This document shows positions 2,036-32,666 of a DNA stretch of 64,000 bases, piece after piece. Source of the DNA: a virus (Duplodnaviria > Heunggongvirae > Uroviricota > Caudoviricetes); IMG/VR virus record IMGVR_UViG_2795385649_000011; one strand, written 5' to 3'. Below the pieces are notes generated by a model that had not been told where the DNA came from, did no database searches, and was given only the letters and a program-made list of their open reading frames with translations. How positions within the stretch are numbered: the first letter of the stretch is position 1; every line of letters starts with the position of its first letter. Both the position numbers and the translations under genes were made by a program.

Positions 2036-2913
2036 TGTCCGCCGTCTCCGTGACCGCGATGTCGCCGACTGATGCGCGGGCACTCACCGAGAGCATCCGC
2101 AGCTCCGTCGATCGCGTCTGGGACCTCATAGCTAAGGCATACACCCAGCGGGCATGGGCTGTCCTCGGATACCCGTCCTGGGACGTGTACTGCGAGCGCG
2201 AGTTCGCCTCCACCTGGTTCAAGCTGCCCCGCGAGACCCGCGCCGAGGTAGTGCTGTCCCTCCGCGACTCCGGGCTCTCCACCCGCGCTATCGCGGCGGC
2301 AACCGGGGTCAGCCAGAGCACCGTGCAACGCGAACTCCCTGCACCCCCTACTGAGTCAAATGACTCAGTAGGACCCGTCACCGGCACCAACGGCAAGACC
2401 TACCAGCCGACCCAGCCGGTACGGCCCACGCTGACGGTTGTCCCAGACCTCCCGAATGAGCCCCCGGCGGCTGCCAATGCTGCGCCTCCCCCCGCGCAGG
2501 CGGCCACGGGCGCTCCCACGGTCTCGGAGGTGAGCGCTCCCCCCGCTGCCGCCACCTCCGAGACCGTGGAGAGCTTCGCCAAGTGCGTGTGCGGATCCAC
2601 CATGGCCCTCTACTCCGGGGCGGCAGACGAAGACCGCTTGGCCCTCCAGGACTGGCGCGACGAGCACCAGTCCTGCGTGCTCCCCACACCCGCCGCCCCC
2701 GTCCCGGTTCCCGTGCCCATCCCCCGCCGGAAGCCGATCACAGACTCCTTCGCCGAAGCCACCACGGCCATGACGAAGGCGGTGAAGCGGGTAGAGGCAC
2801 TGGCAGCCGACGACCGCTTCGACAAGAACGCGGACCAAATCGCCATCTACGCAAGCGATCTGATCCGCGCGCGAGACGCGCTGCAACGCGTCATCGAGAA
2901 GTTGCCCTCGTAA
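2032..2913 (+). CDS. Hypothetical protein with HTH segment and a Pro/Ala-rich linker
   Basis: 293 aa; TRAIAAATGVSQSTVQREL; low-complexity PAAP-type central region. Confidence 0.45.
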   Translation: MMSAVSVTAMSPTDARALTESIRSSVDRVWDLIAKAYTQRAWAVLGYPSWDVYCEREFASTWFKLPRETRAEVVLSLRDSGLSTRAIAAATGVSQSTVQRELPAPPTESNDSVGPVTGTNGKTYQPTQPVRPTLTVVPDLPNEPPAAANAAPPPAQAATGAPTVSEVSAPPAAATSETVESFAKCVCGSTMALYSGAADEDRLALQDWRDEHQSCVLPTPAAPVPVPVPIPRRKPITDSFAEATTAMTKAVKRVEALAADDRFDKNADQIAIYASDLIRARDALQRVIEKLPS

Positions 2914-2934
2914 ACCAGCAGAAGGAGCACCTCA

Positions 2935-3795
2935 GTGTCGAATGCTATCCCACTTCGGAGGAACCAAATGGTCACGTCCGATGTCGAGAGGATCGACGGC
3001 AAGCTCGCCGACGAGTACCTCAAGTTCAACGTCCGTAACCGGCCCCTCAGCGAGAAGAAGATTCTCCAGCTAGCCGCCGACATGGAGGCGGGCCGCTGGC
3101 AGTTCAACGGCGAGGCGATCAAGTTCAGCCTGGACGGCTCACTTCTCGACGGGCAGCACCGCCTCCACGCGATCTCCCTGTGCGGCGTGCCCGTGGAAAT
3201 GCTTGTGGTTCGGGGCCTGCCGGCGGAATCGCAGAGCACCATGGACCAGGGCCTCCGGCGGAGCGCATCCGATCAGCTGAACCTCGCCGGTATCAACTCC
3301 ACGAACTCGGATGCTTCCGCTGTCAAGACGTTCATGGTGTGGCAGCGCGGCTGGCTGTACACCGATAAGGCCTCCGGCGCTATCACGACCACGGATGTTG
3401 TGCAGTGGGCCACCGAGCATCCCGAGTTGTTCGAGCTCATCCGCAGGGGTGGCGCCTTCAATCGCGTGAAGGCCCGGCCCGGCCTGGTGCGTGCGGTGTT
3501 CGCAGGCATCGCGTACTGGCATGGGGTTGAGACAACCAGCGTGTTCTTCCAGCGAGTACTCGACGGTGCTGGGCTAGAGGCAGGCTCGCCAATCCTCGCC
3601 CTGCGTAACCGTTTAGACCGCGTGCGCGGCGAGGGCTTCAAGATTTCTGACCGCGAAGCCATCGGCTATTTCATTGTCGCGTTCAACCGCTGGATGACCG
3701 GCAGCCACATCGCGAAGCTCCAGCAGCCCAAGGGTGGGTGGAACGGAACGAACTTCCCCAAGGTTATCGGCACCACACAGCAGGTGCTCGCGTGA
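2935..3795 (+). CDS. ParB-like nuclease domain protein (ParB/Srx fold)
   Basis: LLDGQHRLHA ParB N-terminal signature; AAGGAG 12 nt upstream of the GTG start. Confidence 0.65.
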   Translation: MSNAIPLRRNQMVTSDVERIDGKLADEYLKFNVRNRPLSEKKILQLAADMEAGRWQFNGEAIKFSLDGSLLDGQHRLHAISLCGVPVEMLVVRGLPAESQSTMDQGLRRSASDQLNLAGINSTNSDASAVKTFMVWQRGWLYTDKASGAITTTDVVQWATEHPELFELIRRGGAFNRVKARPGLVRAVFAGIAYWHGVETTSVFFQRVLDGAGLEAGSPILALRNRLDRVRGEGFKISDREAIGYFIVAFNRWMTGSHIAKLQQPKGGWNGTNFPKVIGTTQQVLA

Positions 3796-3919
3796 TGTTC
3801 CGCGAGACCGTGGTGCCCTGGCTCCGGGAGACCCTGGTGCCTGTCCTCTGGGCCCTCGCCTTCGGCGTGTTCTTCGGCTCCGTCCTGATGACGAACGTCC
3901 TCGCCAGCAGGTGATCACC

Positions 3920-4276
3920 ATGGCGCGCATCCTTCAACGCCCTGAGCTGCCAGCGCATCTCACGGATCTCACGGGGGACTACCCCGTATCCGAGGCCGCA
4001 CGCCTGCTGTCCGTAGACCCTGCCATCAACATCGGGCGCGACCAGTTGTTCGAGGCAATGGCTAACGAGGACTGGATCACGCGGGGCCGCGATCAACGCT
4101 GGCACGCATACCCGGAGAGCGTGACCCTCGGGTACATCGCTCTGCGGCCCGGCGGCGAGTACGAAACACCTACCGGTGTGACCAAGGAGCGCCCACAGAT
4201 CATCCACGTCACCGCCGCCGGTATCGGCGAAATGCACTACCGGCTGGGCGGTTCCCAGCAGCTCACCCTCACGTAA
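3920..4276 (+). CDS. Hypothetical protein
   Basis: ORF from ATG 3920, in frame with track ORF 3734..4276; the upstream extension is Arg-rich and looks like a wrong-frame artefact. Confidence 0.4.
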   Translation: MARILQRPELPAHLTDLTGDYPVSEAARLLSVDPAINIGRDQLFEAMANEDWITRGRDQRWHAYPESVTLGYIALRPGGEYETPTGVTKERPQIIHVTAAGIGEMHYRLGGSQQLTLT

Positions 4277-4437
4277 AACCAACCAGCACAGGGAGACAAC
4301 ATGAAGCACCGATGGTTGCGGCGTGTCTTGTTCGGTATCCAACCGGCACCCGAACCGGCGCCGCCAAGCCTGAATCCGATCTGGGACGAACTGTCCGCAA
4401 GGCACGGCACACCAGCCGAGATCTGGAGCGCTGCCGC

Positions 4438-4737
4438 ATGATACGCATAGTCTTGGCGACTTTCGTCGCGTTCGCGGTGGTGGTCTCCTGCGCCGCCCCG
4501 GCGGCTGCCGACCCGGTGAACGATGCCGCGAATGATGTCGGTGGCGCGCTGTGCATCGCGATCAGCGGCGATCCAACTTTCAACGGCATCAACCGCATCG
4601 GGAATGCACTCCACGAGCGAGGGTTCAGCTACCCCGACGCGGGCCGCATTGTCCGGCTGTCCGTGGAGGCTTACTGCCCTTGGCAGCAGCCGCTTCTCGA
4701 CCTCTACGTGAAGTCGGCCCGCTGGAGGACCATATGA
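4438..4737 (+). CDS. Small secreted/membrane protein with signal peptide
   Basis: MIRIVLATFVAFAVVVSCAAPAAA hydrophobic N-terminus with an AXA cleavage motif. Confidence 0.45.
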   Translation: MIRIVLATFVAFAVVVSCAAPAAADPVNDAANDVGGALCIAISGDPTFNGINRIGNALHERGFSYPDAGRIVRLSVEAYCPWQQPLLDLYVKSARWRTI

Positions 4738-5306
4738 GCGAGCTATGGGTTGTTGACGTTGAGACAACCGGATTGGACCGCAACCGGCACCTGCCGGTGG
4801 AGGTCGCGGCGATCCACTTGAAGACGGGCCGCGAAATCCATTTCGTCCCATTCATTTCGGCGGAGGCATTGGGCTACGCGGACCCAGAGTCGATGCGTAT
4901 CAACCGGTACTACGAGCGTGCCCTCTACCGCGATCAGCTCACCGATACCGCGACGCTGAACTGCTACCAGGACTTGTTCGAACTGCTGGACGGGAAGACC
5001 CTCGGCGGTGCTAACCCGCGATTTGACGCGGACATGCTGATAGCCGGTTACGAGCACGTCTGGCGTGCGCAGACCCGGACGAAAGAGCCTTGGCGGTATC
5101 GGCTCTCGGACCTATCTGCCTACACCGCAGGTCTTTTCCAGATCGACCCCGCCGACCCACCCGGCCTTGCGAGGTGCTGCGAGCTGCTGGGTGTCACCAA
5201 CACCGCCGAACACACGGCGCTCGGCGACACGCGGGCCACCCGAGATTGCTTCCGCCGCGCGTACGAGCGCGACAAGAAGGGAATAGGAGCCGATCCCCAT
5301 GCCTGA
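4734..5306 (+). CDS. DnaQ-like 3'-5' exonuclease (DEDDh family)
   Basis: Exo I VDVETTGLD, Exo III HTALGDTRAT; ATG overlaps the upstream stop (ATGA). Confidence 0.7.
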   Translation: MSELWVVDVETTGLDRNRHLPVEVAAIHLKTGREIHFVPFISAEALGYADPESMRINRYYERALYRDQLTDTATLNCYQDLFELLDGKTLGGANPRFDADMLIAGYEHVWRAQTRTKEPWRYRLSDLSAYTAGLFQIDPADPPGLARCCELLGVTNTAEHTALGDTRATRDCFRRAYERDKKGIGADPHA

Positions 5307-5640
5307 TATGTACAAGCTGCTCCGCGACCAGAACGCGCGCACCGAAGCAGCCAAGAAGCCAGAGACCGGCATATACCAGCTGGAGCCCACACCAAAGCCA
5401 CTGGAGCCAGGCAAGTTTGAGAAGTCAGTACTCCTCGCACTCCAAGGCTCCAACGTGTACGCGGGGTCCGTTCCCGTAGAGGAGGTAGAGCGACGGCGGA
5501 AGAAGAACCGCCACGCCCGCCGCGCCCGGCGCGGAAACACTGCGGCCATCGCCCGCCAGTCGCGCCTCAACTACGCACAGAAGCGTCGCCGCCGGTTCGC
5601 ACGAGGCAACGCGTACAACCCTCTGGCGGTCGAATCATGA
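5299..5640 (+). CDS. Hypothetical basic protein
   Basis: 113 aa ORF with Arg/Lys-rich C-terminus. Confidence 0.4.
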   Translation: MPDMYKLLRDQNARTEAAKKPETGIYQLEPTPKPLEPGKFEKSVLLALQGSNVYAGSVPVEEVERRRKKNRHARRARRGNTAAIARQSRLNYAQKRRRRFARGNAYNPLAVES

Positions 5641-22599: not shown

Positions 22600-22820
22600 G
22601 CCTTTCAGTCGATCTCACGGTAAACGGGCTACTAGTCGGTCACGTGGAAGTCAATTGCGTTGAGTGGAGCGATTACACGGACACCCGAGGCTACGAATAC
22701 TCCGTGACTAGCAGCGACCGAGCGGAACCGGCATCGGGGAGGGTCGATCACTACCACCGCGACGGGGCGCTCGCGCTCGTGCATAAGGTGCTCGCCGACT
22801 ACCTCGGGGTGAGTAAATGA
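22596..22820 (+). CDS. Hypothetical protein
   Basis: GTGA overlap start; 74 aa. Confidence 0.35.
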   Translation: MSLSVDLTVNGLLVGHVEVNCVEWSDYTDTRGYEYSVTSSDRAEPASGRVDHYHRDGALALVHKVLADYLGVSK

Positions 22821-23197
22821 GCCCACAACGTATCCAGCGGAAACGAGTCAAGGGCTGGCGCAAACCAGAGGGCGCCATCTGCGTCACCCGGCCCGGACGC
22901 TGGGGCAACCCGTTCAAGGTCATATCCGCCGGAACAGAGCCCGGCCTATTCAGCCGACGCCGCGAACGGGTCTGGACCGTCGAGGGTCCCGGAACGTTTT
23001 TCCAGGGCACCGGGACACGTGAATGGGCAGCCGCCTACGCGGTGCGGCTTTACCGTCGCTGGCTTCTCGGCTCGATGAAGCGCGTAGAGGACCTAGTCCC
23101 GCTGCTACGCGGACACGACCTGTGCTGCTACTGCCCGCTCGACCAACCCTGCCATGCCGATGTCCTCCTTGAACTTGCGAACGGAGACCCCGAGTGA
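22817..23197 (+). CDS. DUF4326-family protein
   Basis: RPGRWGNPF and CYCPLDQPCHADVLLELAN motifs. Confidence 0.5.
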   Translation: MSPQRIQRKRVKGWRKPEGAICVTRPGRWGNPFKVISAGTEPGLFSRRRERVWTVEGPGTFFQGTGTREWAAAYAVRLYRRWLLGSMKRVEDLVPLLRGHDLCCYCPLDQPCHADVLLELANGDPE

Positions 23198-24195
23198 CAC
23201 AACGCGACCCGTACCGCTGCGCTTTCGAGGCCCGCTGCACCCGCCGCGAACTCCTCGATGACGAGCATGTCGGCGCGCAAATCGCAGACGGCGTGGTCTG
23301 CGACGGGTGCCTCACAAAACTCCGCTACGCGGTGAAAGGCATGCCCGCCGACTGGGAACGGCTCCACCACGGGATGGGGGAGAGGTTCATCGCCGGAGGC
23401 GCCAAGGTATCCGGCACCCACGAACACGCCCTCGTCATCAACGAGCACCGCGAAGCCCTCCAGGCCCACATCGTTGACCTCGCCGACCGCGCCGCCGAGA
23501 TGGTCGAAACCGCGATGAACATCAACGGCCGGCAGCGGCACGGCCGGAGAGGATTCCCCGCCCACGACAAGGCGACCGTCGTGCACGCCGTGAAAATCCT
23601 GGAGCCCAATCTCGATGTGCTGCTGGCCCAAAAAGAGCAGGACATGCTCGTGTGGGGCCGAATACCTGACGGCGATGAAGGCTGGCACCCCCAGAACGGA
23701 CAACCACGGGAACTCCAATCCTTCGACGGCGTGGACATCGCGACGCAGATCGTTCACGCATCCAGGCTCGTCTACCAGGAACTTGGCCGCGCCGCGCTCC
23801 GGCACTCAGACCCTATGCCGTGCCCGGCGGTCAATCACAAAGGCGAGCAATGCGGCGCCTACACCGTTGGCCGCTGGGACGGCACCGCCGAATACGACTG
23901 CACCACATGCGGTGCCCGCTGGCCTGAGCGCGAGTACCAGTGGCTCCAAGGACTAGTAATTGACCTGATCAAAGAACAAGAGGAGACAGACTTGTTGAAA
24001 TTCCTTCTCGCCGAGGCATATTCGAGGCTTGATGAGATATCTGCCCTCGTCAAGAAGGCAGAGAGCGACCCGGCTGTCGATCTGCCCGGCGCGGGCCGCG
24101 TCGTCGCGGAAAGCATCCAGAGTGTCCTCAACAACGGCCTAATCCCACACCAAACCCCGAAGGAACGCCAAACAGTGAAAGGCCCCAAGAAGTGA
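23194..24195 (+). CDS. Hypothetical protein (333 aa)
   Basis: Long ORF with overlap coupling and several Cys pairs. Confidence 0.45.
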   Translation: MTQRDPYRCAFEARCTRRELLDDEHVGAQIADGVVCDGCLTKLRYAVKGMPADWERLHHGMGERFIAGGAKVSGTHEHALVINEHREALQAHIVDLADRAAEMVETAMNINGRQRHGRRGFPAHDKATVVHAVKILEPNLDVLLAQKEQDMLVWGRIPDGDEGWHPQNGQPRELQSFDGVDIATQIVHASRLVYQELGRAALRHSDPMPCPAVNHKGEQCGAYTVGRWDGTAEYDCTTCGARWPEREYQWLQGLVIDLIKEQEETDLLKFLLAEAYSRLDEISALVKKAESDPAVDLPGAGRVVAESIQSVLNNGLIPHQTPKERQTVKGPKK

Positions 24196-24389
24196 GCATC
24201 GAAAGCCTCAGCTTCCATGACCCGGAGACGGGACGCTGGGTGACAGCAAAACTCAAGAGTGCCAAGATGATTGAAGGCGTGTTGGAGCTCAACTTCGGAA
24301 TGCCCTACGACATCGAGGGGCAAGCTGTACCGGCCACTCCAGCACTGGAATCCGCGCTCGTTGAGCCGAAGGTGGCGGAATCCCGTTGA
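24192..24389 (+). CDS. Hypothetical small protein
   Basis: 65 aa ORF. Confidence 0.35.
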   Translation: MSIESLSFHDPETGRWVTAKLKSAKMIEGVLELNFGMPYDIEGQAVPATPALESALVEPKVAESR

Positions 24390-24808
24390 CCAACCCGAAC
24401 GTCCACCGGTACCGGGGGGACTCACCGGTAGAGCTGACCCGGCGCGTCGCCCTCTCGTATCGGCGCCTCGCCGAACAACTCACTGAGGTGCTCGCCGAGC
24501 ATCTACCACCCGACCACCGCGCGCTTGAGGCGGTCGCCGACCTCGACCGCTACTGGCAGGACGACAGCCAAGGCAACCAGCTGTGGGTGGTGCCTCAGCT
24601 TGCCCCGCCCGCCGAGGACGACCTACTTACCACGTCCGAAGTGGCCGCTCACGCCTATGTCTCACCCGCCGCCGTGCGTATGTGGAACAGCCGCGCCAAG
24701 CAAGGCCTCGACGGTGTCCGAGCCATCGACACCCCAGACGGCCCCCGCTTCCGGTGGGGAGACGTACTCGAATACAAAAAGCGCCGCCGCGCAAGGAGAT
24801 CCCGTTGA
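24386..24808 (+). CDS. Excisionase / MerR-like HTH DNA-binding protein
   Basis: LLTTSEVAAHAYVSPAAVRMWNSR HTH_17-like segment. Confidence 0.45.
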   Translation: MTNPNVHRYRGDSPVELTRRVALSYRRLAEQLTEVLAEHLPPDHRALEAVADLDRYWQDDSQGNQLWVVPQLAPPAEDDLLTTSEVAAHAYVSPAAVRMWNSRAKQGLDGVRAIDTPDGPRFRWGDVLEYKKRRRARRSR

Positions 24809-25646
24809 ACACCCGCAACCCAGAGCAAGACGTGATCGACGCTATCGGCGATCTGGTTGATGAGCAGCTGTCCGGCTACAGCCAGCGAAGCGGATACGAC
24901 TACAACGTCAACCAGGACAAGTGCGCGGTGTGCGGCCGCGAATGGCACGGCCTCGCATTGGGCGGCTGCCCCGGACCATACGGAACACCCGAGCAGAAGA
25001 CGGCCTACCGGAACACGGGCAACCCGTCCTACGGTCAGCGCCGAAACCAACAGGGGATCGGGATGTACCAGACATCAGCGCCCACGATGTTCCAAGTTGA
25101 CGTGGTTCCCGATGTTGACGTGGTCCCACCGGAACCAGCGTGGGGCAGCACTACACGTCGGGCGATCCGCACCATCCGGGTGGGTGGCCGCCCCACACCC
25201 CAGAGGCAACCTGGACCAAGGGTGACCCCACGCCAGGTTGGGAGCATGTCAACCGTGGTCCCGACAAGCCCTGGATGGGCTTCCAGGAGCAGATCACGGG
25301 TATCGAACGAACACCTGACGGACGCATCCCCGAGTACGTCATGACCAACCCCGAGACCGGCGAGGTGGTCAGATTCGACAGCGGACCCATCGAACGGGGC
25401 AATCAGCAGGTGTTCCTAGACGCAAAGCACAACTACACGCCCCTGATCAAGAGTCCAGATGCGCCGTGGACTGAGAACATCCAGAACGAGCTCGTCAGAG
25501 AGGCTCAGCGACAGATACGCGTCCTGCCCCCTGAGACTGGCCTTGAGTGGCACGTCGCTAACCCACAGAGCGCAGCGATAATTCGGAATCTGCTAGAGGG
25601 CCGCGGTCTCGACGTTGACGTGATCTACACCCCGGAGAAGCCATGA
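24805..25646 (+). pseudogene. Two-frame (frameshifted) gene for a putative toxin-like protein; the frameshift lies inside an 18-bp tandem repeat
   Basis: Frame-1 segment 24805-25115 (no ATG; TTG overlapping the upstream TGA) and frame-3 segment 25119-25646 both look protein-like. One missing T in the second copy of GTTGACGTGGT(T)CCC joins them into a single ~280 aa reading frame. Confidence 0.4.
25096..25131. repeat. Tandem 18-bp duplication (GTTGACGTGGTTCCCGAT / GTTGACGTGGTCCCACCG) encoding VDVVPD VDVVP
   Basis: Two adjacent near-identical copies; the second lacks one T relative to the first. Confidence 0.6.
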
Positions 25647-26392
25647 CCGTAGAATTCGATGCTGTGAACGGGCCAACCAACGCGTCTCCCGTCTGGGCGA
25701 GAGAGTCGTTCGTGAACGCGTTCTGGGTCGCGACCGGCGAATCACCCGAATGGATCGCGGCGCGCACCGATGCGCTGCTGACGCAGCTAGGAACGGATCT
25801 GGGAATCGCGCAGTGGGACATCCCGAAGGGGCACCACTGGGAGACTTGGGCTGGGCCCAGCGAGGCATTGGCCGACATCGTTCGGAGCTGCCCGGTGCGC
25901 GAAGCACTCCCTGACGGCGCCAGCGGCGATGCTCTCCCCAGGGAGGGGTACTCGATCGTCCTGAAGGGCGTCGGTCCTGCCATCACTGCCAAGGTCTTCA
26001 TCGGTGCGGGGTCTATCGGTCTCGGCGGGAGACTGCCGGCGCACAACCTCCACATCGACCTGACCGAGACCGCGCCGGGCGGCGTCTCTAGCGAGGTTGG
26101 CGACAAGGTGTGCGCCGCTGTGGCTTCAACCTGGCAGCCCGCCACTTTCACCCTCACTGATCTTGCGGCAATGCGCCTTGCTCGGCGCAACAATTGGAAG
26201 ATCGGTGCCGGATACCGCACCTGGATCAGCAAGGAAGTCGGCGAGATTGACCATCTCGTTGACCTTCTCACAAAGACCGAGCTGGCCGGGGGCACCCTGA
26301 TCTCCGCGCCCGACGACTGGCCCGCTACGCGCGTCGTGGAGGCGGTCACCGCGACCCTCCGCGAGAACGGCCTAGACGAAGTACCTCACTGA
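25643..26392 (+). CDS. Hypothetical protein, candidate immunity protein to the upstream toxin-like gene
   Basis: 249 aa ORF, ATGA-coupled to the toxin-like gene and last gene before the non-coding RNA block. The immunity role is inferred from position only. Confidence 0.45.
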   Translation: MTVEFDAVNGPTNASPVWARESFVNAFWVATGESPEWIAARTDALLTQLGTDLGIAQWDIPKGHHWETWAGPSEALADIVRSCPVREALPDGASGDALPREGYSIVLKGVGPAITAKVFIGAGSIGLGGRLPAHNLHIDLTETAPGGVSSEVGDKVCAAVASTWQPATFTLTDLAAMRLARRNNWKIGAGYRTWISKEVGEIDHLVDLLTKTELAGGTLISAPDDWPATRVVEAVTATLRENGLDEVPH

Positions 26393-26550
26393 GCTGGCAC
26401 CGATATTCGGTAGCCAGGTCGAGGGCCTCGACGGCATACTTTCCCCGGTACGGGAGTCACCTTCCAGCGAATCAACATTTCCTCAAAAAATATGCCCTGA
26501 ACAGGCATTACTGAGGTATAGTTCTTGGCGTAGTCAACAAAAACATGGAT

Positions 26551-26722
26551 GGCGTGAGCAGGACGCGAGTCGGTTATCTGAAAATCATCAGATCGCGGGT
26601 TCGAATCCCGCCGGGCTGCTTGAAAGAGCTTCGGGCTTTCATCGGGCGGAACGTGGCAGAGCGGCCGAATGCATTGATCCAAGATCAACGCCGGTAAGCA
26701 CCTCACACGCCCACGCCATCCC
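26551..26722 (+). ncRNA. YrlA-like Y RNA copy 1 (Ro60-binding stem plus an enlarged tRNA-like module containing a type-II tRNA-like D-arm)
   Basis: 5' GGCGTGAGCAGGACGCGAGTCGGTTATC pairs with 3' CCGGTAAGCACCTCACACGCCCACGCC. Internal T-arm GCGGGTTCGAATCCCGC and D-arm-like GTGGCAGAGCGGCCGAATGC, which matches tRNA-Ser at 1181. Confidence 0.5.
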
Positions 26723-26739
26723 GGATACAACTTCACATT

Positions 26740-26878
26740 GATGATGCGAGCAGGACGCAGGTCGGTTACCACTTCTAATGGAGAGGTCGCGGGTTCGAGT
26801 CCCGTCAGCCGCGAAAGTGGTTGTAGCTCAGTCGGTAGAGCGCTTACCCCCGGTCAGCACACACACGCCCGCATCATC
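26740..26878 (+). ncRNA. YrlA-like Y RNA copy 2 (best-formed copy)
   Basis: Terminal stem GATGATGCG/CGCATCATC plus GAGCAGGACGCAGGTCGGTTACC vs CCGGTCAGCACACACACGCCCG; T-arm GCGGGTTCGAGTCCCGT; 7-bp acceptor-like stem CAGCCGC/GTGGTTG closed by GAAA; D-arm TAGCTCAGTCGGTAGAGCG. Confidence 0.6.
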
Positions 26879-26896
26879 CCCAAGGCTTCGTAGTAG

Positions 26897-27044
26897 ATGG
26901 TGTGAGCAGGACGCAGGATCGGTTATCGCATCTGGAGCGGGTGGTCGCTGGTTCAAATCCAGCTGCGGGCGCGTAGTGCGTCCGTATAGCTCAGCTTGGT
27001 AGAGCACCTAAAACACCGGTCAGCAATCACACGCCCGCACCACC
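26897..27044 (+). ncRNA. YrlA-like Y RNA copy 3
   Basis: GATGGTGTGAGCAGGACGCAGGATCGGTTATC vs CCGGTCAGCAATCACACGCCCGCACCACC; T-arm GCTGGTTCAAATCCAGC; acceptor-like stem CGGGCGC/GCGTCCG closed by GTAGT; D-arm TAGCTCAGCTTGGTAGAGCA. Confidence 0.55.
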
Positions 27045-27076
27045 TACGCGAATCATCAATAACTCCATAGCTTTTC

Positions 27077-27202
27077 GATGTGAGCAGGACGCTCGGTCGG
27101 TTATCACTCAATTGGTAATGCAGGTTCGACCCCTGTCGCTCGCGCCTCGGTGCGGGTGTAAAAGCGAAATCCCGGTCAGCACATACACGCCCACATCACC
27201 CC
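27077..27202 (+). ncRNA. YrlA-like Y RNA copy 4 (degenerate tRNA-like module)
   Basis: GATGTGAGCAGGACGCTCGGTCGGTTATC vs CCGGTCAGCACATACACGCCCACATCACC; T-arm GCAGGTTCGACCCCTGT; GC-rich stem CGCTCGCGC/GTGCGGGTG closed by CTCG; no clear D-arm. Confidence 0.45.
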
Positions 27203-27216
27203 GAACCCCCTTTTGG

Positions 27217-27294
27217 CGCGAGCAGGACGACGGTCGGTTACCCCAACCTCGAAACTGGATGAACCCCGGCGGTCACTCACACGCCCGCGCCACC
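27217..27294 (+). ncRNA. Minimal Y RNA-like hairpin copy 5 (Ro-binding stem only, no tRNA-like module)
   Basis: GGCGCGAGCAGGACGACGGTCGGTTACC pairs with CCGGCGGTCACTCACACGCCCGCGCC across a 23-nt loop; it ends 22 nt before the rsr start. Confidence 0.45.
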
Positions 27295-27315
27295 TAACCC
27301 AGCAAGGAGCTCACG

Positions 27316-29016
27316 GTGGACGTTCTATCCTCGATCAGCACGCGGCGCACCCCTCAGGCCCAGAAGGCGGACCCGCGCCAGGTCAAGAACGCCGCCGGGG
27401 GCTACACCTTCCAGGCCGACGACTGGACCCGGCTCCACCGATTCCTGACCCTCGGCACGACCGGCGGCACCTACTACACCTCCGCCGAGGACCTCACCCG
27501 CGACGCCGCCGATGTCGTGATCCGGCTCGCCGCAACCGATCCCGTCACCCTCGTGCAGAAGATCGTTGAGGTCTCCGAGGCCGGACGCGCCCCCAAGCAG
27601 AACCCGGCCCTGTTCGCGCTCGCTATCGCTTCGGCCTCCGAGAACGTGGAAGGCCGCCGTGCCGCCGCCGCCGCACTGCCCCGAGTCGCGCGCACCGCCA
27701 CCCACCTGTACCTGTTCACCAAGTACATGGAGCAGTTCCGGGGCTGGGGACCGGCGATGAAGCGCGCCGTCTCCAGCTGGTACCTGGACAAGCCCGTGGA
27801 CCGGCTCGCCTACCAGCTGGTCAAGTACCGGCAGCGTGACGGCTGGACCCACCGCGACATGCTCCGGCTCAGCGGCCCCGCCACCAGCGACCCCGCACGC
27901 CGCATGGCGTTCAACTGGGCTGTCGGCAAGGGGCTCAACGACTACAACTGGAAGCAGCCGCTCCTCACTCCGGAGCAGCTCAAGGCCGGAGAGCGCAACC
28001 CCGCTCTACCGAAGCTGCCCAATGTGGAACTGGCTGACGGGCACCCGCTTGCCATCATCGCGGACTACGAAGCCGCGCAGCGTGCCACCACCGTCAACGA
28101 GTGGCTGGCGATCATCCGCCGGGGCAACGGCCTACCGTGGGAGGCGTTCCCCGACAAGGCCCTCACCGAGCCTGCGATCTGGGAGGCGCTGATCGAGCAC
28201 GGCCTCCCGCAGACCGCCCTCATGCGGCAGCTGCCCCGCCTAACCCGCCTCGGCGTGCTGAACGGTCAGCTCGGCAGCCGGGTCTCCGCGCAGCTCCAGG
28301 ACACAGACCGGCTACGAAAGGGCCGCGTCCACCCGATCAATGTCCTTGTCGCACAGCGCACCTATGCCTCTGGGCGTTCTGCGCGCGGTGAGTCCACCTG
28401 GACTCCGAACCGCCGCATCGTTGACGCGCTCGACGCCGCGTTCTACAACGCCTACGGCGCCGTCGAGCCCTCGGGTAAGCGGACCCTGCTGGCACTGGAC
28501 ATCTCCGGCTCCATGAGCGCCGCGATCTCCGGTATGCCGCTGACGTGCCGCGAGGCCGCCGCCGCGCTCGCACTGGTGACCGCCAACGTGGAGCCCAACC
28601 ACGACATCATCGGGTTCACCGCCGGGGCCGGTGGGAGCTTCCGCTCATCAGGGATCACGGAGTTGGACATCACGCCGCGCCGCCGCCTCGATGACGTGTG
28701 CCGATACACCGCAGGCCTCCCTATGGGCGCTACCGACTGCGCGCTCCCCATGATCTGGGCGAAGGCGCAGCTTCGCCCCTACGACGCCATCGTGATCCTC
28801 ACCGACAACGAGACCTGGTACGGGGGTATCCACCCGCACCAGGCTCTCACCGAGTACCGGAACAAGCTCAGCCTGGACACCAGCCTGATGGTGGTCGCGA
28901 TGACCGGCGGTCGGCAGACCATCGCAGATCCTTCGGACCCGCGCCAGCTCGACGTGTCCGGGTTCGATAGCGCTGTACCGCAGCTCATCTCGGACTTCGC
29001 CCGAGGTGACCTGTAA
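27316..29016 (+). CDS. rsr: Ro60 ortholog Rsr: TROVE-domain RNA-binding protein with C-terminal vWA (MIDAS) domain
   Basis: 566 aa; N-terminal TROVE-like region; C-terminal vWA with MIDAS motif LLALDISGSMS...T...TD; AAGGAG RBS before the GTG start. Directly downstream of the five Y RNA-like genes. Confidence 0.7.
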   Translation: MDVLSSISTRRTPQAQKADPRQVKNAAGGYTFQADDWTRLHRFLTLGTTGGTYYTSAEDLTRDAADVVIRLAATDPVTLVQKIVEVSEAGRAPKQNPALFALAIASASENVEGRRAAAAALPRVARTATHLYLFTKYMEQFRGWGPAMKRAVSSWYLDKPVDRLAYQLVKYRQRDGWTHRDMLRLSGPATSDPARRMAFNWAVGKGLNDYNWKQPLLTPEQLKAGERNPALPKLPNVELADGHPLAIIADYEAAQRATTVNEWLAIIRRGNGLPWEAFPDKALTEPAIWEALIEHGLPQTALMRQLPRLTRLGVLNGQLGSRVSAQLQDTDRLRKGRVHPINVLVAQRTYASGRSARGESTWTPNRRIVDALDAAFYNAYGAVEPSGKRTLLALDISGSMSAAISGMPLTCREAAAALALVTANVEPNHDIIGFTAGAGGSFRSSGITELDITPRRRLDDVCRYTAGLPMGATDCALPMIWAKAQLRPYDAIVILTDNETWYGGIHPHQALTEYRNKLSLDTSLMVVAMTGGRQTIADPSDPRQLDVSGFDSAVPQLISDFARGDL

Positions 29017-29018
29017 CG

Positions 29019-29453
29019 ATGGGCAGGGTCGGCGGCCCCGCGCCGCGCCCCTGCGCGTCGTGCCCCTACCGGGAGGACGTACCCAGCGGCGTGTGGCATG
29101 CCACCGAGTATCAGAAACTCATCGCCTACGACGGCCCCACCTCGGAGCAGCCGCCCGGCCTGTTCCTGTGCCACCAGACGGACGCCGCCGACGCAGCGGC
29201 CCGGCTTTGTGCGGGCTGGGTCGGCTGCCACGGCGGCGAGGAACTACTTGCGATACGCATCGGCGCGGCCACGGGCGCGCTGTCTCCCGAAGACGTACAG
29301 GCCGCATTCGAATATGTGAGCCCTGTCCCGCTGTTCGAGTCAGGCCGTGACGCAGCAGAGCACGGCATCTTCGAGATCGAAGACCCCGGAGAGGAAGCCA
29401 TCACCGCGATCGAGAAGATATCCCGCCGCCGCGTGGACATCAGGGGACGTTGA
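29019..29453 (+). CDS. Hypothetical Cys-rich protein downstream of rsr
   Basis: 144 aa; CASCPYREDVPSG...CHQTDAADAAARLCAGWVGCHGG. Confidence 0.4.
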   Translation: MGRVGGPAPRPCASCPYREDVPSGVWHATEYQKLIAYDGPTSEQPPGLFLCHQTDAADAAARLCAGWVGCHGGEELLAIRIGAATGALSPEDVQAAFEYVSPVPLFESGRDAAEHGIFEIEDPGEEAITAIEKISRRRVDIRGR

Positions 29454-29671
29454 TGGACCCGAGGGCACAGCAAGCCCGCGAGCACCACCGGCTGGCCGGG
29501 GAAGAGCGCGACTCCGCCAGCCAGCACCGAAGCCAGCGCGACCGGCTCGTACGGGAACTCTGGACGAACGAGCGCGAGAAGTGGACCCACGCCACTCTCG
29601 CCACCGCCGTGAAGTGCAGCCCCCAACTCATCCAGAAAATCATCGACGGTAGAACGGCCACCTCCCGATGA
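29450..29671 (+). CDS. Hypothetical small protein
   Basis: 73 aa ORF with overlap coupling. Confidence 0.35.
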   Translation: MMDPRAQQAREHHRLAGEERDSASQHRSQRDRLVRELWTNEREKWTHATLATAVKCSPQLIQKIIDGRTATSR

Positions 29672-29838
29672 GTAGCGGCCCTTTCCATATCGTGAACCGG
29701 CTCAACGGGAAGCACGTTGGCCCGTTCACGACTGAAACGGACTGCGCGCTAGCGAAAACCATTGCTACACCGGACTGGACAACGGGAATTGTCATGGACA
29801 AGAAGCAATTCAAGAAGCACTTGGAGCGTGGACTGTGA
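29668..29838 (+). CDS. Hypothetical small protein (56 aa)
   Basis: ATG 29668, stop 29836-38 overlapping the next GTG start. Confidence 0.3.
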   Translation: MSSGPFHIVNRLNGKHVGPFTTETDCALAKTIATPDWTTGIVMDKKQFKKHLERGL

Positions 29839-30692
29839 GTACAGAAGCACGCCACGGCACGGAGCGGCACCGCGCTATCGCGGACGAGAACACGATTCTT
29901 CGTGGGCAGGTCGGCTCCGGCCTGCATGGTGTCACGACCGGCGCCGACGACCGCGACGAAATGGGCATCTGCATCGAACCTCCCGAGGCCGTAATCGGTT
30001 TGGAGAAGTTCGAGCAGTACATGTACCGCACCCAACCGGACGGCGCCCGCTCCGGCCCCGGCGACCTCGATCTGTGTGTCTACAGCCTGCGGAAGTGGAC
30101 ACGGCTGGCCGCCAATGGCAATCCCTCAGTGCTGCTGATGCTTTGGATACCCGACAATGAGCTGACGGTGAAAAGCCAACTCGGCGCCGAACTTCAGGCA
30201 GCCTCGGAGATGTTCGTCACCACGCAGGCTGGACAGAAGTTCTTGAGCTACTTGAACTCTCAGCGTGAAGGACTCGAAGGTACCCATCACCGGCACACCA
30301 ACCGGCCCGAACTCATCGAACAGTACGGTTTCGACACCAAGTACGCGTATCACGCCCTGCGCCTCGGCATGCAGGGTATCCAGCTCGTCACGGAGAGGAA
30401 GCTGCACCTGCCGATGGTCAAGGCCCATCGTGATGCGCTGCTCCGCGTTCGGCGCGGCGAGACCTCGCTCCCCGAGGTGAAGAGCTGGCTCGCGGATCTG
30501 ACCTGGAGTCTGGAGCACTTCATCTCGACCGAGCCTCTGCCGGATACCCCGGACTGGGTTCGGATCAACACGTGGTTGGTTGATATGTACCAGCGGCACT
30601 GGCGTACTCGCGGTACCAGGTCCGAAGCCCGACTCTCCGGCGCGATCCGAAACGCACACAACATCGCCGTCAGTCGAAGTAGATGGCGATGA
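29835..30692 (+). CDS. Pol-beta-superfamily nucleotidyltransferase with helical C-terminal domain
   Basis: N-terminal NTase motif GQVGSGLHGVTTGADDRDEMGI (GS...[DE]x[DE]); 285 aa. Confidence 0.55.
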   Translation: MSTEARHGTERHRAIADENTILRGQVGSGLHGVTTGADDRDEMGICIEPPEAVIGLEKFEQYMYRTQPDGARSGPGDLDLCVYSLRKWTRLAANGNPSVLLMLWIPDNELTVKSQLGAELQAASEMFVTTQAGQKFLSYLNSQREGLEGTHHRHTNRPELIEQYGFDTKYAYHALRLGMQGIQLVTERKLHLPMVKAHRDALLRVRRGETSLPEVKSWLADLTWSLEHFISTEPLPDTPDWVRINTWLVDMYQRHWRTRGTRSEARLSGAIRNAHNIAVSRSRWR

Positions 30693-31156
30693 CGGAATCG
30701 AGTGCATTCCGAGACAAGCTCGTAGCTCGGGCTCGTGAACTTGAATGTTTCCCAGACCCCGAGCAACGCACCGATGCTGAGCTGGCCGATGCCATAGGGG
30801 CGGAGGAGGCAGGCGCTAGATGGCTAAAGCGGTACGAGTCACTACCAACCGAGGCCGCGAAAAGGTCTGCTGTCAAACGGCTTAATGCCGCGCTGGAGGC
30901 CTCAAGGGCTGGAACGCTGGAGAACCCCATGTCTGACCCTGCTATCAAAGCCACGCAACGGGCATGGGTGGAAGAAGACGGCGGTCCCGCGTACTACCGG
31001 ACGATGACCGACGCAATGAACGCCACTGCCCGTGAGGCTTTGAAACCGATACGGGACTGGTCGGCCAATTGGTCTATCGAGCTCCTGCGTCGTGACCTTG
31101 GTCAAGCGTGGAGCGAGCTCGCACCTCTGATCTTCACAAGCGAGGAGCTGGCGTGA
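30683..31156 (+). CDS. Hypothetical protein
   Basis: 157 aa ORF. Confidence 0.4.
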   Translation: MAMTESSAFRDKLVARARELECFPDPEQRTDAELADAIGAEEAGARWLKRYESLPTEAAKRSAVKRLNAALEASRAGTLENPMSDPAIKATQRAWVEEDGGPAYYRTMTDAMNATAREALKPIRDWSANWSIELLRRDLGQAWSELAPLIFTSEELA

Positions 31157-31503
31157 TGAGGACCCAGAGACCGTTGAATGCCGACGAGCATTCGGAACTG
31201 GATGCCTTGAACGCGGCAGTGCAGGCAGCGATAGACGCGCGCCGCGAATGGCTGGACGGGAAGATGCGTGAAACATCGAAACTTCAAGTCGGAGATGACA
31301 TCTACGATGCGCAAACCGGCGAGAAACTTGGTGTCGTATCCGGGCTGTACCGCTACCACGCTGGGCGTGATGATCTCTACGATACGGACGTCGAGTGCGA
31401 CTACCAGTATGAAACTCGCCCCGGATGTTTCGACAACACTTCCCGACAGGTTGGCCGAATGTTTGGCACACGCGAAGCGCCGCCGCGCACGCGAAATCGC
31501 TAG
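31156..31503 (+). CDS. Hypothetical protein
   Basis: ATG 31156 overlapping the upstream TGA. Confidence 0.4.
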   Translation: MRTQRPLNADEHSELDALNAAVQAAIDARREWLDGKMRETSKLQVGDDIYDAQTGEKLGVVSGLYRYHAGRDDLYDTDVECDYQYETRPGCFDNTSRQVGRMFGTREAPPRTRNR

Positions 31504-31526
31504 TTGCCCAATCGACATTGGAGTAA

Positions 31527-31916
31527 ATGATGACCACACCCACCTCACGCATGTTCGGCCTCGGAGCCATCTTGACCGTCACCACCGACCGGATGCTCGC
31601 GCGCGATATCGGCGACATCTACGAACTCCTCAACTTCATGACCGGCGACAACCTGTTCACCCATCAGTTGCCTCGTGCCGCAGGCGAATGCAAACCAGCG
31701 CTGCTGGAACAGCATCCGCAGCTCGCCGACATCGCCGTACCCGATCTCCCGGACGCCAACGCGTATATGGCGTACCTCGCCGGTCTGGAGGACACCTATG
31801 ACGCGGAGCTGGCCGTGACGCCTCTGCCCGACGACGACCACACCCACATCGACCCGTTATCCGAGTTGGCCGACATGATGCCTGACAAGCCGATGATCGT
31901 TGTGGTCGAATCATGA
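31527..31916 (+). CDS. Hypothetical protein with LNFMTGDN motif (paralog of 12053..12430)
   Basis: Shared FMTG...(Q)LPRA motif with the 12053 gene product. Confidence 0.45.
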   Translation: MMTTPTSRMFGLGAILTVTTDRMLARDIGDIYELLNFMTGDNLFTHQLPRAAGECKPALLEQHPQLADIAVPDLPDANAYMAYLAGLEDTYDAELAVTPLPDDDHTHIDPLSELADMMPDKPMIVVVES

Positions 31917-32344
31917 GTGACACAGAGCCCCTGGAATATTTCGACTCTTGGGTCAACGGCGCTGAGGATGCTCTGAACGCGGGAAACCTGAAACTCGCTC
32001 TGGCGCAAATCGTCGCGGCGATGAGGTCGATGTCTACCGCTGTTGCCGCCGCAAAGACGGAGGTAGTTGATATTCCTCGCCGCGACCCGGTGAGACGCAT
32101 GGTCACACGCATCATCGACACGTTGAGGGACATACGGGTTGCGACGAACCAGCCGGTCCACGGCTTCATCTACGTGTGCCCGGAGGACGCGAAAACACTT
32201 CACGTCCTCTTCAACGGTGAGTCCGTCCCGCCCTACAACCCCAAGTCGGGGGACAAGGCAACCCTGTTTGGTGAGATGGCCCTGGTGGATGACGATCTCA
32301 CGCCGGGCGCCATCTATATCGGGGTGAAGGTCCAAGGTGTCTGA
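31913..32344 (+). CDS. Hypothetical protein
   Basis: 143 aa ORF. Confidence 0.4.
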   Translation: MSDTEPLEYFDSWVNGAEDALNAGNLKLALAQIVAAMRSMSTAVAAAKTEVVDIPRRDPVRRMVTRIIDTLRDIRVATNQPVHGFIYVCPEDAKTLHVLFNGESVPPYNPKSGDKATLFGEMALVDDDLTPGAIYIGVKVQGV

Positions 32345-32666
32345 CCGCCGTCCTGCGAAAAGCGAAGCACAGCAGCTCATGTCGGAAGTCTTGAGCGAGC
32401 ACCGGATTGCGTACCTTGATCAATTCATCTGCACGGGATGCAAAGAGTCATTCGGGAACGTAGGAGAAGCGACCGCACACCAGTCCGCTGAGATAGACAA
32501 AGCCTTCGGGGGAATCACGCGTGTATGGGGTGCGCAGATGATCGGCGATGACGAGGTGACCATCGGCAGTGAGGGGACTGCCCGTTATTGCGCGCGACAG
32601 CACCCTATGTCGTGGAAGGTCATGTCGCATTGGGCGTCGAGCTGGACCGAGGTGCCGGGCGAATGA
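32337..32666 (+). CDS. Hypothetical protein
   Basis: GTG 32337; 109 aa. Confidence 0.35.
   Translation: MSDRRPAKSEAQQLMSEVLSEHRIAYLDQFICTGCKESFGNVGEATAHQSAEIDKAFGGITRVWGAQMIGDDEVTIGSEGTARYCARQHPMSWKVMSHWASSWTEVPGE

Follow-up and report, generated by a model that had tools for sequence, protein, structure and literature searches.

The two out-of-frame coding segments between positions 24805 and 25646 of the 64-kb window (the whole stretch of DNA analysed, 64,000 nucleotides, to which all unattributed positions refer) were found to be the joined remains of two different genes. We conclude, with a probability of about 96%, that the three-gene PEST cassette of an integrated prophage of the Mycobacteroides abscessus complex was disarmed here by one recent deletion of 3,136 bp. 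PEST (phage-encoded ESX-secreted toxin) cassettes consist of a WXG100 partner, a polymorphic toxin, and an immunity protein, and occur in M. abscessus prophages (PMC10654092; PMC9934374). The toxin is large and is built of an N-terminal WXG100-like domain, a linker, and a C-terminal TOX domain, and the immunity gene directly behind it varies together with the TOX domain (PMC10654092). The mutation is an ordinary inactivating deletion in a known kind of system.

The locus contains two open reading frames on the plus strand. The frame-1 ORF (24805..25344, 179 aa) starts at a TTG codon, which is preceded by an AAGGAG Shine-Dalgarno sequence and overlaps the stop codon of an upstream 140-aa gene, and ends at the TGA at 25342-25344. 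The frame-0 ORF (168 aa) runs from a GTG at 25140 to 25646. A preliminary description of this DNA had reported two frames overlapping at 25096-25131. Two frames are indeed present, but their open overlap extends over 226 nt at 25119-25344, frame 0 being closed earlier by TGA codons at 25098 and 25116. The 18-bp tandem repeat reported at 25096-25131 (plus strand), encoding VDVVPD and VDVVPP, was confirmed. It is imperfect, with 13 of 18 bases shared between the 18-mers at 25096-25113 and 25114-25131, and forms part of the native linker of the 253-aa gene. Since any +1 insertion within the 226-nt stretch fuses both frames, as does a −1 shift anywhere in it, the repeat is not singled out as the site of a mutation.

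The two halves were traced to separate sources by searching an in-silico fused protein against 5.8 billion database proteins, none of which covered more than 64% of it and none of which was an in-frame fused homologue. Residues 1 to ~112 matched the N-termini of intact 253-aa M. abscessus prophage proteins (69-94% identity), while residues ~113 to 280 matched the C-termini of 430-635-aa WXG100-type polymorphic toxins, including the products of genes annotated ‘polymorphic toxin protein’ in prophiGD/prophiT prophages. At the DNA level, the alignment with an intact 253-aa gene was perfect through the repeat and broke at 25136|25137, and the alignments with full-length toxin genes started exactly at 25137, at the Ser of ‘FDP|SVGQHY’. 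The discontinuity, where similarity to the 253-aa gene ends and similarity to the toxin gene begins, is therefore located 5 nt 3′ of the repeat. The intact 253-aa homologues read ‘...QVDVVPDVDVVPPEP’ and then go on ‘TQEEIAALIERP...’; because they share the repeat and the frame-1 reading through ‘PPEP’, these represent the native state.

An exact look-up of the 249-aa protein encoded directly 3′ of the frame-0 ORF returned 44 contigs, in most of which it stands behind a full-length toxin, and the intact toxin was found on at least eight contigs. The parent gene order, observed in most contigs of this kind, comprises a 253-aa, a 122-aa, and a 173-aa gene, a 106-aa WXG-like gene, a Tox-REase-5 toxin gene of 627-635 aa, and the 249-aa gene, with the Ro60/TROVE module next in line. 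Three such contigs, L015, L016 (NCBI GCA_001296325.1), and L019 (GCA_002013855.1), show 100% identity to the window across both flanks of the junction, the left one spanning 2,358 bp and the right one 7,258 bp. Removal of positions 2359-5494 (3,136 bp) from L016 yielded window positions 22779-32392 exactly (9,614 bp, 0 mismatches), and no observation spoke against the deletion. The opposite polarity, with the deleted form as the ancestor and the 253-aa and 634-aa genes created by insertion, is implausible, because both genes have many diverged intact homologues. An ancestor close to L008 had also been considered; it was dropped, and the parent type of L015, L016, and L019 took its place.

The breakpoint was mapped independently from either side to 25136|25137. 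On the left, the 253-aa gene is retained up to base 2 of codon 111; on the right, the toxin gene, which encodes 634 aa in L016, resumes with base 1 of codon 466. Three cut placements are equivalent, indicating a 2-bp microhomology, the CC at 25135-25136, at both parental breakpoints (junction feature, 25135..25137), and the BLAST segments from the two sides overlap by 2 nt. Joining at a CC microhomology fits illegitimate recombination or replication slippage. The apparent frameshift arises because the 253-aa gene and the toxin gene are in different frames. The 179-aa ORF thus consists of 111 native residues and 68 nonsense residues, and the last 169 codons of the toxin follow in another frame.

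These results bear on the central claim of the preliminary description, that a single toxin gene of about 280 aa had been split by the loss of one T within the 18-bp duplication. Inserting a T after 25124 does open a 280-aa frame, as had been proposed. However, no T was lost. The repeat is native: it is base-for-base unchanged in the intact 253-aa genes of L001 and L008 and in the 100%-identical parent type L016, and at the protein level, P0004 and P0005 share the motif and P0006 and P0014 show variants of it. Furthermore, VVPPEP in frame 1 is the conserved reading, the supposed halves belong to two genes separated by 3.1 kb in the parent, and the fusion as a whole has no counterpart among known proteins beyond the 64% coverage given above. 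The lost-base explanation is accordingly left with practically no probability. The accompanying suggestion of an inactivating mutation holds in a broad sense.

The deletion removed two-thirds of the 253-aa gene at its 3′ end, both genes that follow it (122 aa and 173 aa), the WXG-like partner gene of 106 aa (L016 3766-4086) with the intergenic region 5′ of it, and the N-terminal WXG100-like secretion domain and linker of the toxin. In tblastn searches of the 64-kb window, we detected no WXG partner (with three partner proteins as queries), no toxin residues 1-465, and no homologue of the 122-aa or 173-aa protein. The same arrangement could in principle have been produced by cassette exchange, in which a TOX-immunity fragment was acquired from another element through illegitimate recombination at its left end and homologous recombination at its right end. 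PEST cassettes are often swapped between prophages (PMC9934374), the slot carries different cargo in relatives, and TOX/immunity alleles with 89-91% identity occur in unrelated prophage contexts (L012). Nevertheless, the sister with 100% identical flanks carries the same TOX and immunity sequences (0 mismatches) in a full cassette at the same site. Because this sister already holds them there, one deletion suffices, and an exchange is very unlikely.

A sequencing error had been another of the initial suggestions; more broadly, an assembly might have collapsed a repeat or produced a chimera, and short-read assemblies can in general be mis-joined. The identical junction, however, recurred in independent assemblies derived from different runs. 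L002 (ERR330772) matches the window at 100% over 11.2 kb including the junction, L017 (ERR5413985) has the same deletion, and the junction was also found in two more contigs with the 179-aa ORF and in an NCBI assembly with the 168-aa ORF. Additionally, the two breakpoints share 2 bp, too little for an assembly collapse. We consider an artefact extremely improbable. An exact search with the junction 38-mer against the GTDB species representatives and IMG/VR gave no match.

We also evaluated a programmed −1 frameshift, or a phase-variable switch, that would yield a fusion of the N-terminal phage domain to the toxin; the preliminary description had raised a slippage-prone contingency switch. A −1 shift within 25119-25344 would indeed fuse the frames, and a GGGG run is located at 25142. 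On the other hand, the stretch contains no slippery heptamer of the X XXY YYZ type, and the two-frame layout is confined to the deletion allele, while the homologues encode separate and distant single-frame genes. The 18-mer is an imperfect repeat of two copies that is invariant and shows no length variation among relatives, and no in-frame fusion was found. The 3,136-bp deletion fully accounts for the change of frame and for the arrangement, leaving recoding or switching a negligible likelihood, comparable to that of an artefact.

The deletion accordingly defines the features of the locus. The retained 5′ end of the conserved 253-aa prophage gene (24805..25136, plus strand) comprises codons 1-110 and two bases of codon 111, and is 100% identical to L016 2027-2358. 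Beyond this point, the intact homologues (P0003-P0010, P0014, and P0015) continue ‘...VVPPEP(T/N)QEEIAALIERP...’. In the window, it is followed by the out-of-frame tail of the 179-aa ORF (25137..25344, plus strand; 68 codons and the TGA), which is the toxin gene read in the wrong frame. The 179-aa junction product (P0002) is the sole member of its protein cluster and was called on four contigs. PHROG 16713 matched residues 5-52 of the truncated gene. The corresponding region (24805-24960) encodes an N-terminal CxxC-containing domain of about 50 aa, ‘DVIDAIGxLVDEQLSGYSxRSGYDYNVNQDxCxxCxREWHGL’, which heads otherwise unrelated proteins in Gordonia, Rhodococcus, Tsukamurella, and Mycobacterium phages and in Rhodococcus genomes. 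Families with this N-terminal domain include PHROGs 16713, 11256, and 38483.

The 3′ end of the WXG100-type polymorphic toxin gene (25137..25646, plus strand) consists of codons 466-634 and the stop codon and encodes a complete C-terminal TOX domain of the Tox-REase-5 type. It agrees at every position with the corresponding part of the L016 toxin gene (100% identity) and shows 85% amino acid identity to the C-termini of 614-aa and 633-aa toxins, from exactly S466. The remnant matched Pfam PF15648 (Tox-REase-5) over the entire profile (1-95/95) with 26.5 bits (cut-off 25; E = 9.6e-6), and the fused 280-aa construct gave 25.0 bits. The signature residues of the family are Y, FDG, EAK, Y, Q, and W (Zhang et al. 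2012, PMC3482391). By eye, we assigned them to IPEY, RFDSG (FDG in relatives), LDAK (D for E), HNY, RQ, and LEW, and the remnant retains every alignment column that is invariant across its relatives. Neither the TOX domain nor the immunity protein had a match in sequence searches of the PDB, and PHROGs contained no family for either of them.

In the AF2 model of the remnant, residues 65-169 form a confident core (pLDDT 71-95), and the N-terminal 64 residues are disordered. The top Foldseek matches were chains 9oz0_B and 7dym_A of TseT (PA3907), a T6SS nuclease effector of P. aeruginosa (probability 1.0; E = 5e-3 to 9e-3), followed by the XisH, McrC, and Can2/Card1 nucleases. The TM scores are low (0.40-0.46) because of the disordered N-terminal 64 residues. 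Based on this model, the remnant is predicted with moderate confidence to adopt a restriction-endonuclease (PD-(D/E)xK) fold. The proposal that the downstream segment is toxin-like, offered as speculative in the preliminary description, is borne out by the Tox-REase-5 match above the cut-off and by TseT as the nearest solved fold.

Comparison of the remnant with diverged alleles gave dN/dS values of 0.08-0.13, corresponding to purifying selection. Assessment of decay by this means was set aside once the 100%-identical intact parent emerged. The divergence is unevenly distributed: against L012, L003, and L006, the last ~69 TOX codons (25437-25646) are far more diverged than the first 100, and relative to L012 they differ in dS (0.98 vs 0.23) and in the number of non-synonymous differences (22 vs 1). 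This pattern fits a mosaic or a hypervariable, immunity-facing segment.

The TOX remnant lacks its native start codon. It is probably silent or weakly translated, judging from the sequence, because no Shine-Dalgarno sequence is present at either GTG 25140 or ATG 25341. This ATG shares bases with the TGA that closes the truncated ORF 5′ of it. RefSeq lists a 168-aa ‘Tox-REase-5 domain-containing protein’ (WP_079585429.1) starting at GTG 25140, and gene callers on other assemblies chose a 101-aa ORF from ATG 25341 instead. Low-level translation of the TOX domain, from GTG 25140 or by termination-reinitiation at ATG 25341, might create with the immunity protein an intracellular module resembling toxin-antitoxin or abortive-infection systems; alternatively, the remnant might serve as a reserve cassette to be re-armed through recombination with a second PEST locus of its host. 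We regard this as unlikely. If true, a single deletion would have turned a secreted weapon into an internal or stored one.

The predicted cognate immunity gene (25643..26392, plus strand, 249 aa) is intact. Its ATG overlaps the stop codon of the toxin gene (ATGA, 25643-25646), and it has its own Shine-Dalgarno sequence, GGAGAAG. The family of the 249-aa protein numbers more than 100 mycobacterial members, and a homologue in prophiT46-2 (P0078) is annotated ‘polymorphic toxin immunity protein’. Members of the family are encoded directly 3′ of Tox-REase-5 toxins in every relative examined (L003, L006, L007, L008, and L014-L021). The ATGA overlap and this constant position behind full-length toxins support the toxin/immunity reading put forward in the preliminary description. 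No Pfam family was detected for the 249-aa protein at E ≤ 1; Imm52, which is listed for Tox-REase-5, was unmatched. The AF2 model of the protein (pLDDT 85) had 4rho (BPSL2088) and 7drg (the T6SS protein PA0821) as its nearest folds. Scans of the window, L008, and L016 for sigma-70-type promoters gave zero matches.

Without the WXG100-like N-terminus and the WXG partner, the lysogen would be unable to export the predicted nuclease toxin by a type VII (ESX) system. If the immunity gene is still transcribed, the result would be a ‘disarmed but immune’ state, in which the predicted immunity protein may shield the cell from this toxin when it is delivered by kin that harbour the intact prophage, and may also guard against the remnant itself should its expression leak. 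Since loss of the immunity gene with retention of an expressed toxin would be lethal, the layout may reflect survivorship.

The parent prophage has the exact three-gene layout of PEST systems, and the homologous toxin and immunity genes are so annotated in prophiGD/prophiT prophages. In PEST systems of other types, the toxins are toxic when the immunity gene is absent, and a C-terminal 166-residue TOX fragment alone is toxic (PMC10654092). The window retains the C-terminal TOX domain and the coupled immunity gene; it differs from these systems in that the small (~100 aa) partner gene of the WXG100 type is missing, as are the secretion region and the linker at the toxin N-terminus, which makes it a remnant. 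Its position is also different. PEST cassettes typically lie beside the integration functions (PMC10654092), whereas the cassette in the window lies about 24 kb inside the prophage, between early genes and the Ro/Y-RNA module.

Orphan CT/immunity modules of CDI/Rhs loci (Poole et al. 2011, PMC3150448; Koskiniemi et al. 2014, PMC3967940) likewise pair a CT fragment that has neither a delivery domain nor a start for translation with an intact cognate immunity gene behind it. By analogy, the module in the window could confer immunity or be re-armed by recombination. Unlike those modules, however, the remnant did not originate by displacement 3′ of a full-length toxin gene, and no such gene is present in the 64-kb window; its origin is a deletion at a microhomology, by which it became joined to an unrelated gene; and it belongs to a type VII/WXG100 system rather than to T5SS or T6SS. 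The likeness to TseT (PA3907), the partner of TsiT (PDB 7dym, 9oz0; PF15648), lies in the Pfam match, the signature, and the best structural matches, although sequence identity to the remnant is only ~15-18%. With respect to the Tox-REase-5 systems, the parent toxin is delivered by a WXG100/ESX-type N-terminus, a route absent from the list of the 2012 survey (PMC3482391), and the immunity protein of the window has no Pfam Imm52 match.

A megablast search of the locus against GenBank phages gave no match. The prophage is distantly related to the MabK prophages prophiT37-1 and prophiGD43A-5 (about 77% over 11-26% of the query). A minus-strand ORF at 1-1044 encodes a host class I/II aminotransferase, and similarity to prophiGD43A-5 begins at position 1 of that record, near window position 1357. 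The left end of the prophage is therefore probably near 1357.

The immunity gene is followed by a 0.9-kb non-coding stretch (26400-27315) with internally repeated units of ~190 bp. It gave two matches to Rfam YrlA (Y RNA-like) that stay below the gathering score of 69 (34-38 bits), and one tRNA-like match, with these YrlA/tRNA-like matches at 26782-26844, 26919-27033, and 26867-26971; ARAGORN detected no tRNA in the stretch. A Ro60 (TROVE+vWA) gene lies directly 3′ of it, followed by DUF6283 and RlaP genes; the coordinates of this gene group are 27316-29016 and 29835-30692. Together, the Y RNA-like stretch and the Ro60, DUF6283, and RlaP genes look like a phage Ro/Y-RNA module of the RNA-repair type.

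In this prophage family, variable cargo occupies the slot that separates the 253-aa/173-aa genes from the Y-RNA/Ro module. L001 (6762-10895) carries a 721-aa toxin with a GAD-like/Tdi1 immunity protein; L008 (8762-12714) carries a Tox-REase-5 toxin with an immunity protein 56% identical to that of the window; and L010 (8903-15388) and L011 carry a reverse-strand 751-aa TPR_23 protein and other genes instead. The family also occurs as stand-alone contigs of about 72.9-75.8 kb in many independent assemblies, including JGI metagenomes (the contigs behind L008, L014, L015, and P0005-P0015), a pattern that hints at excision or replication of the element, or at ends bounded by repeats.

The ORF at 24805-25344 should be recorded as a gene truncated by deletion and that at 25140-25646 as the remnant of a toxin gene, rather than the two together as a frameshifted gene. 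The finding has little import beyond this annotation and the natural pair of an intact and a disarmed PEST cassette. The locus is a clean natural case of a PEST cassette in which delivery was lost and immunity was kept. The role of PEST toxins in M. abscessus has been called unresolved (PMC10654092); the intact, 100%-identical sister and the deletion prophage provide an isogenic pair for testing the role of the toxin in M. abscessus, in bacterial competition, virulence, or phage defence.
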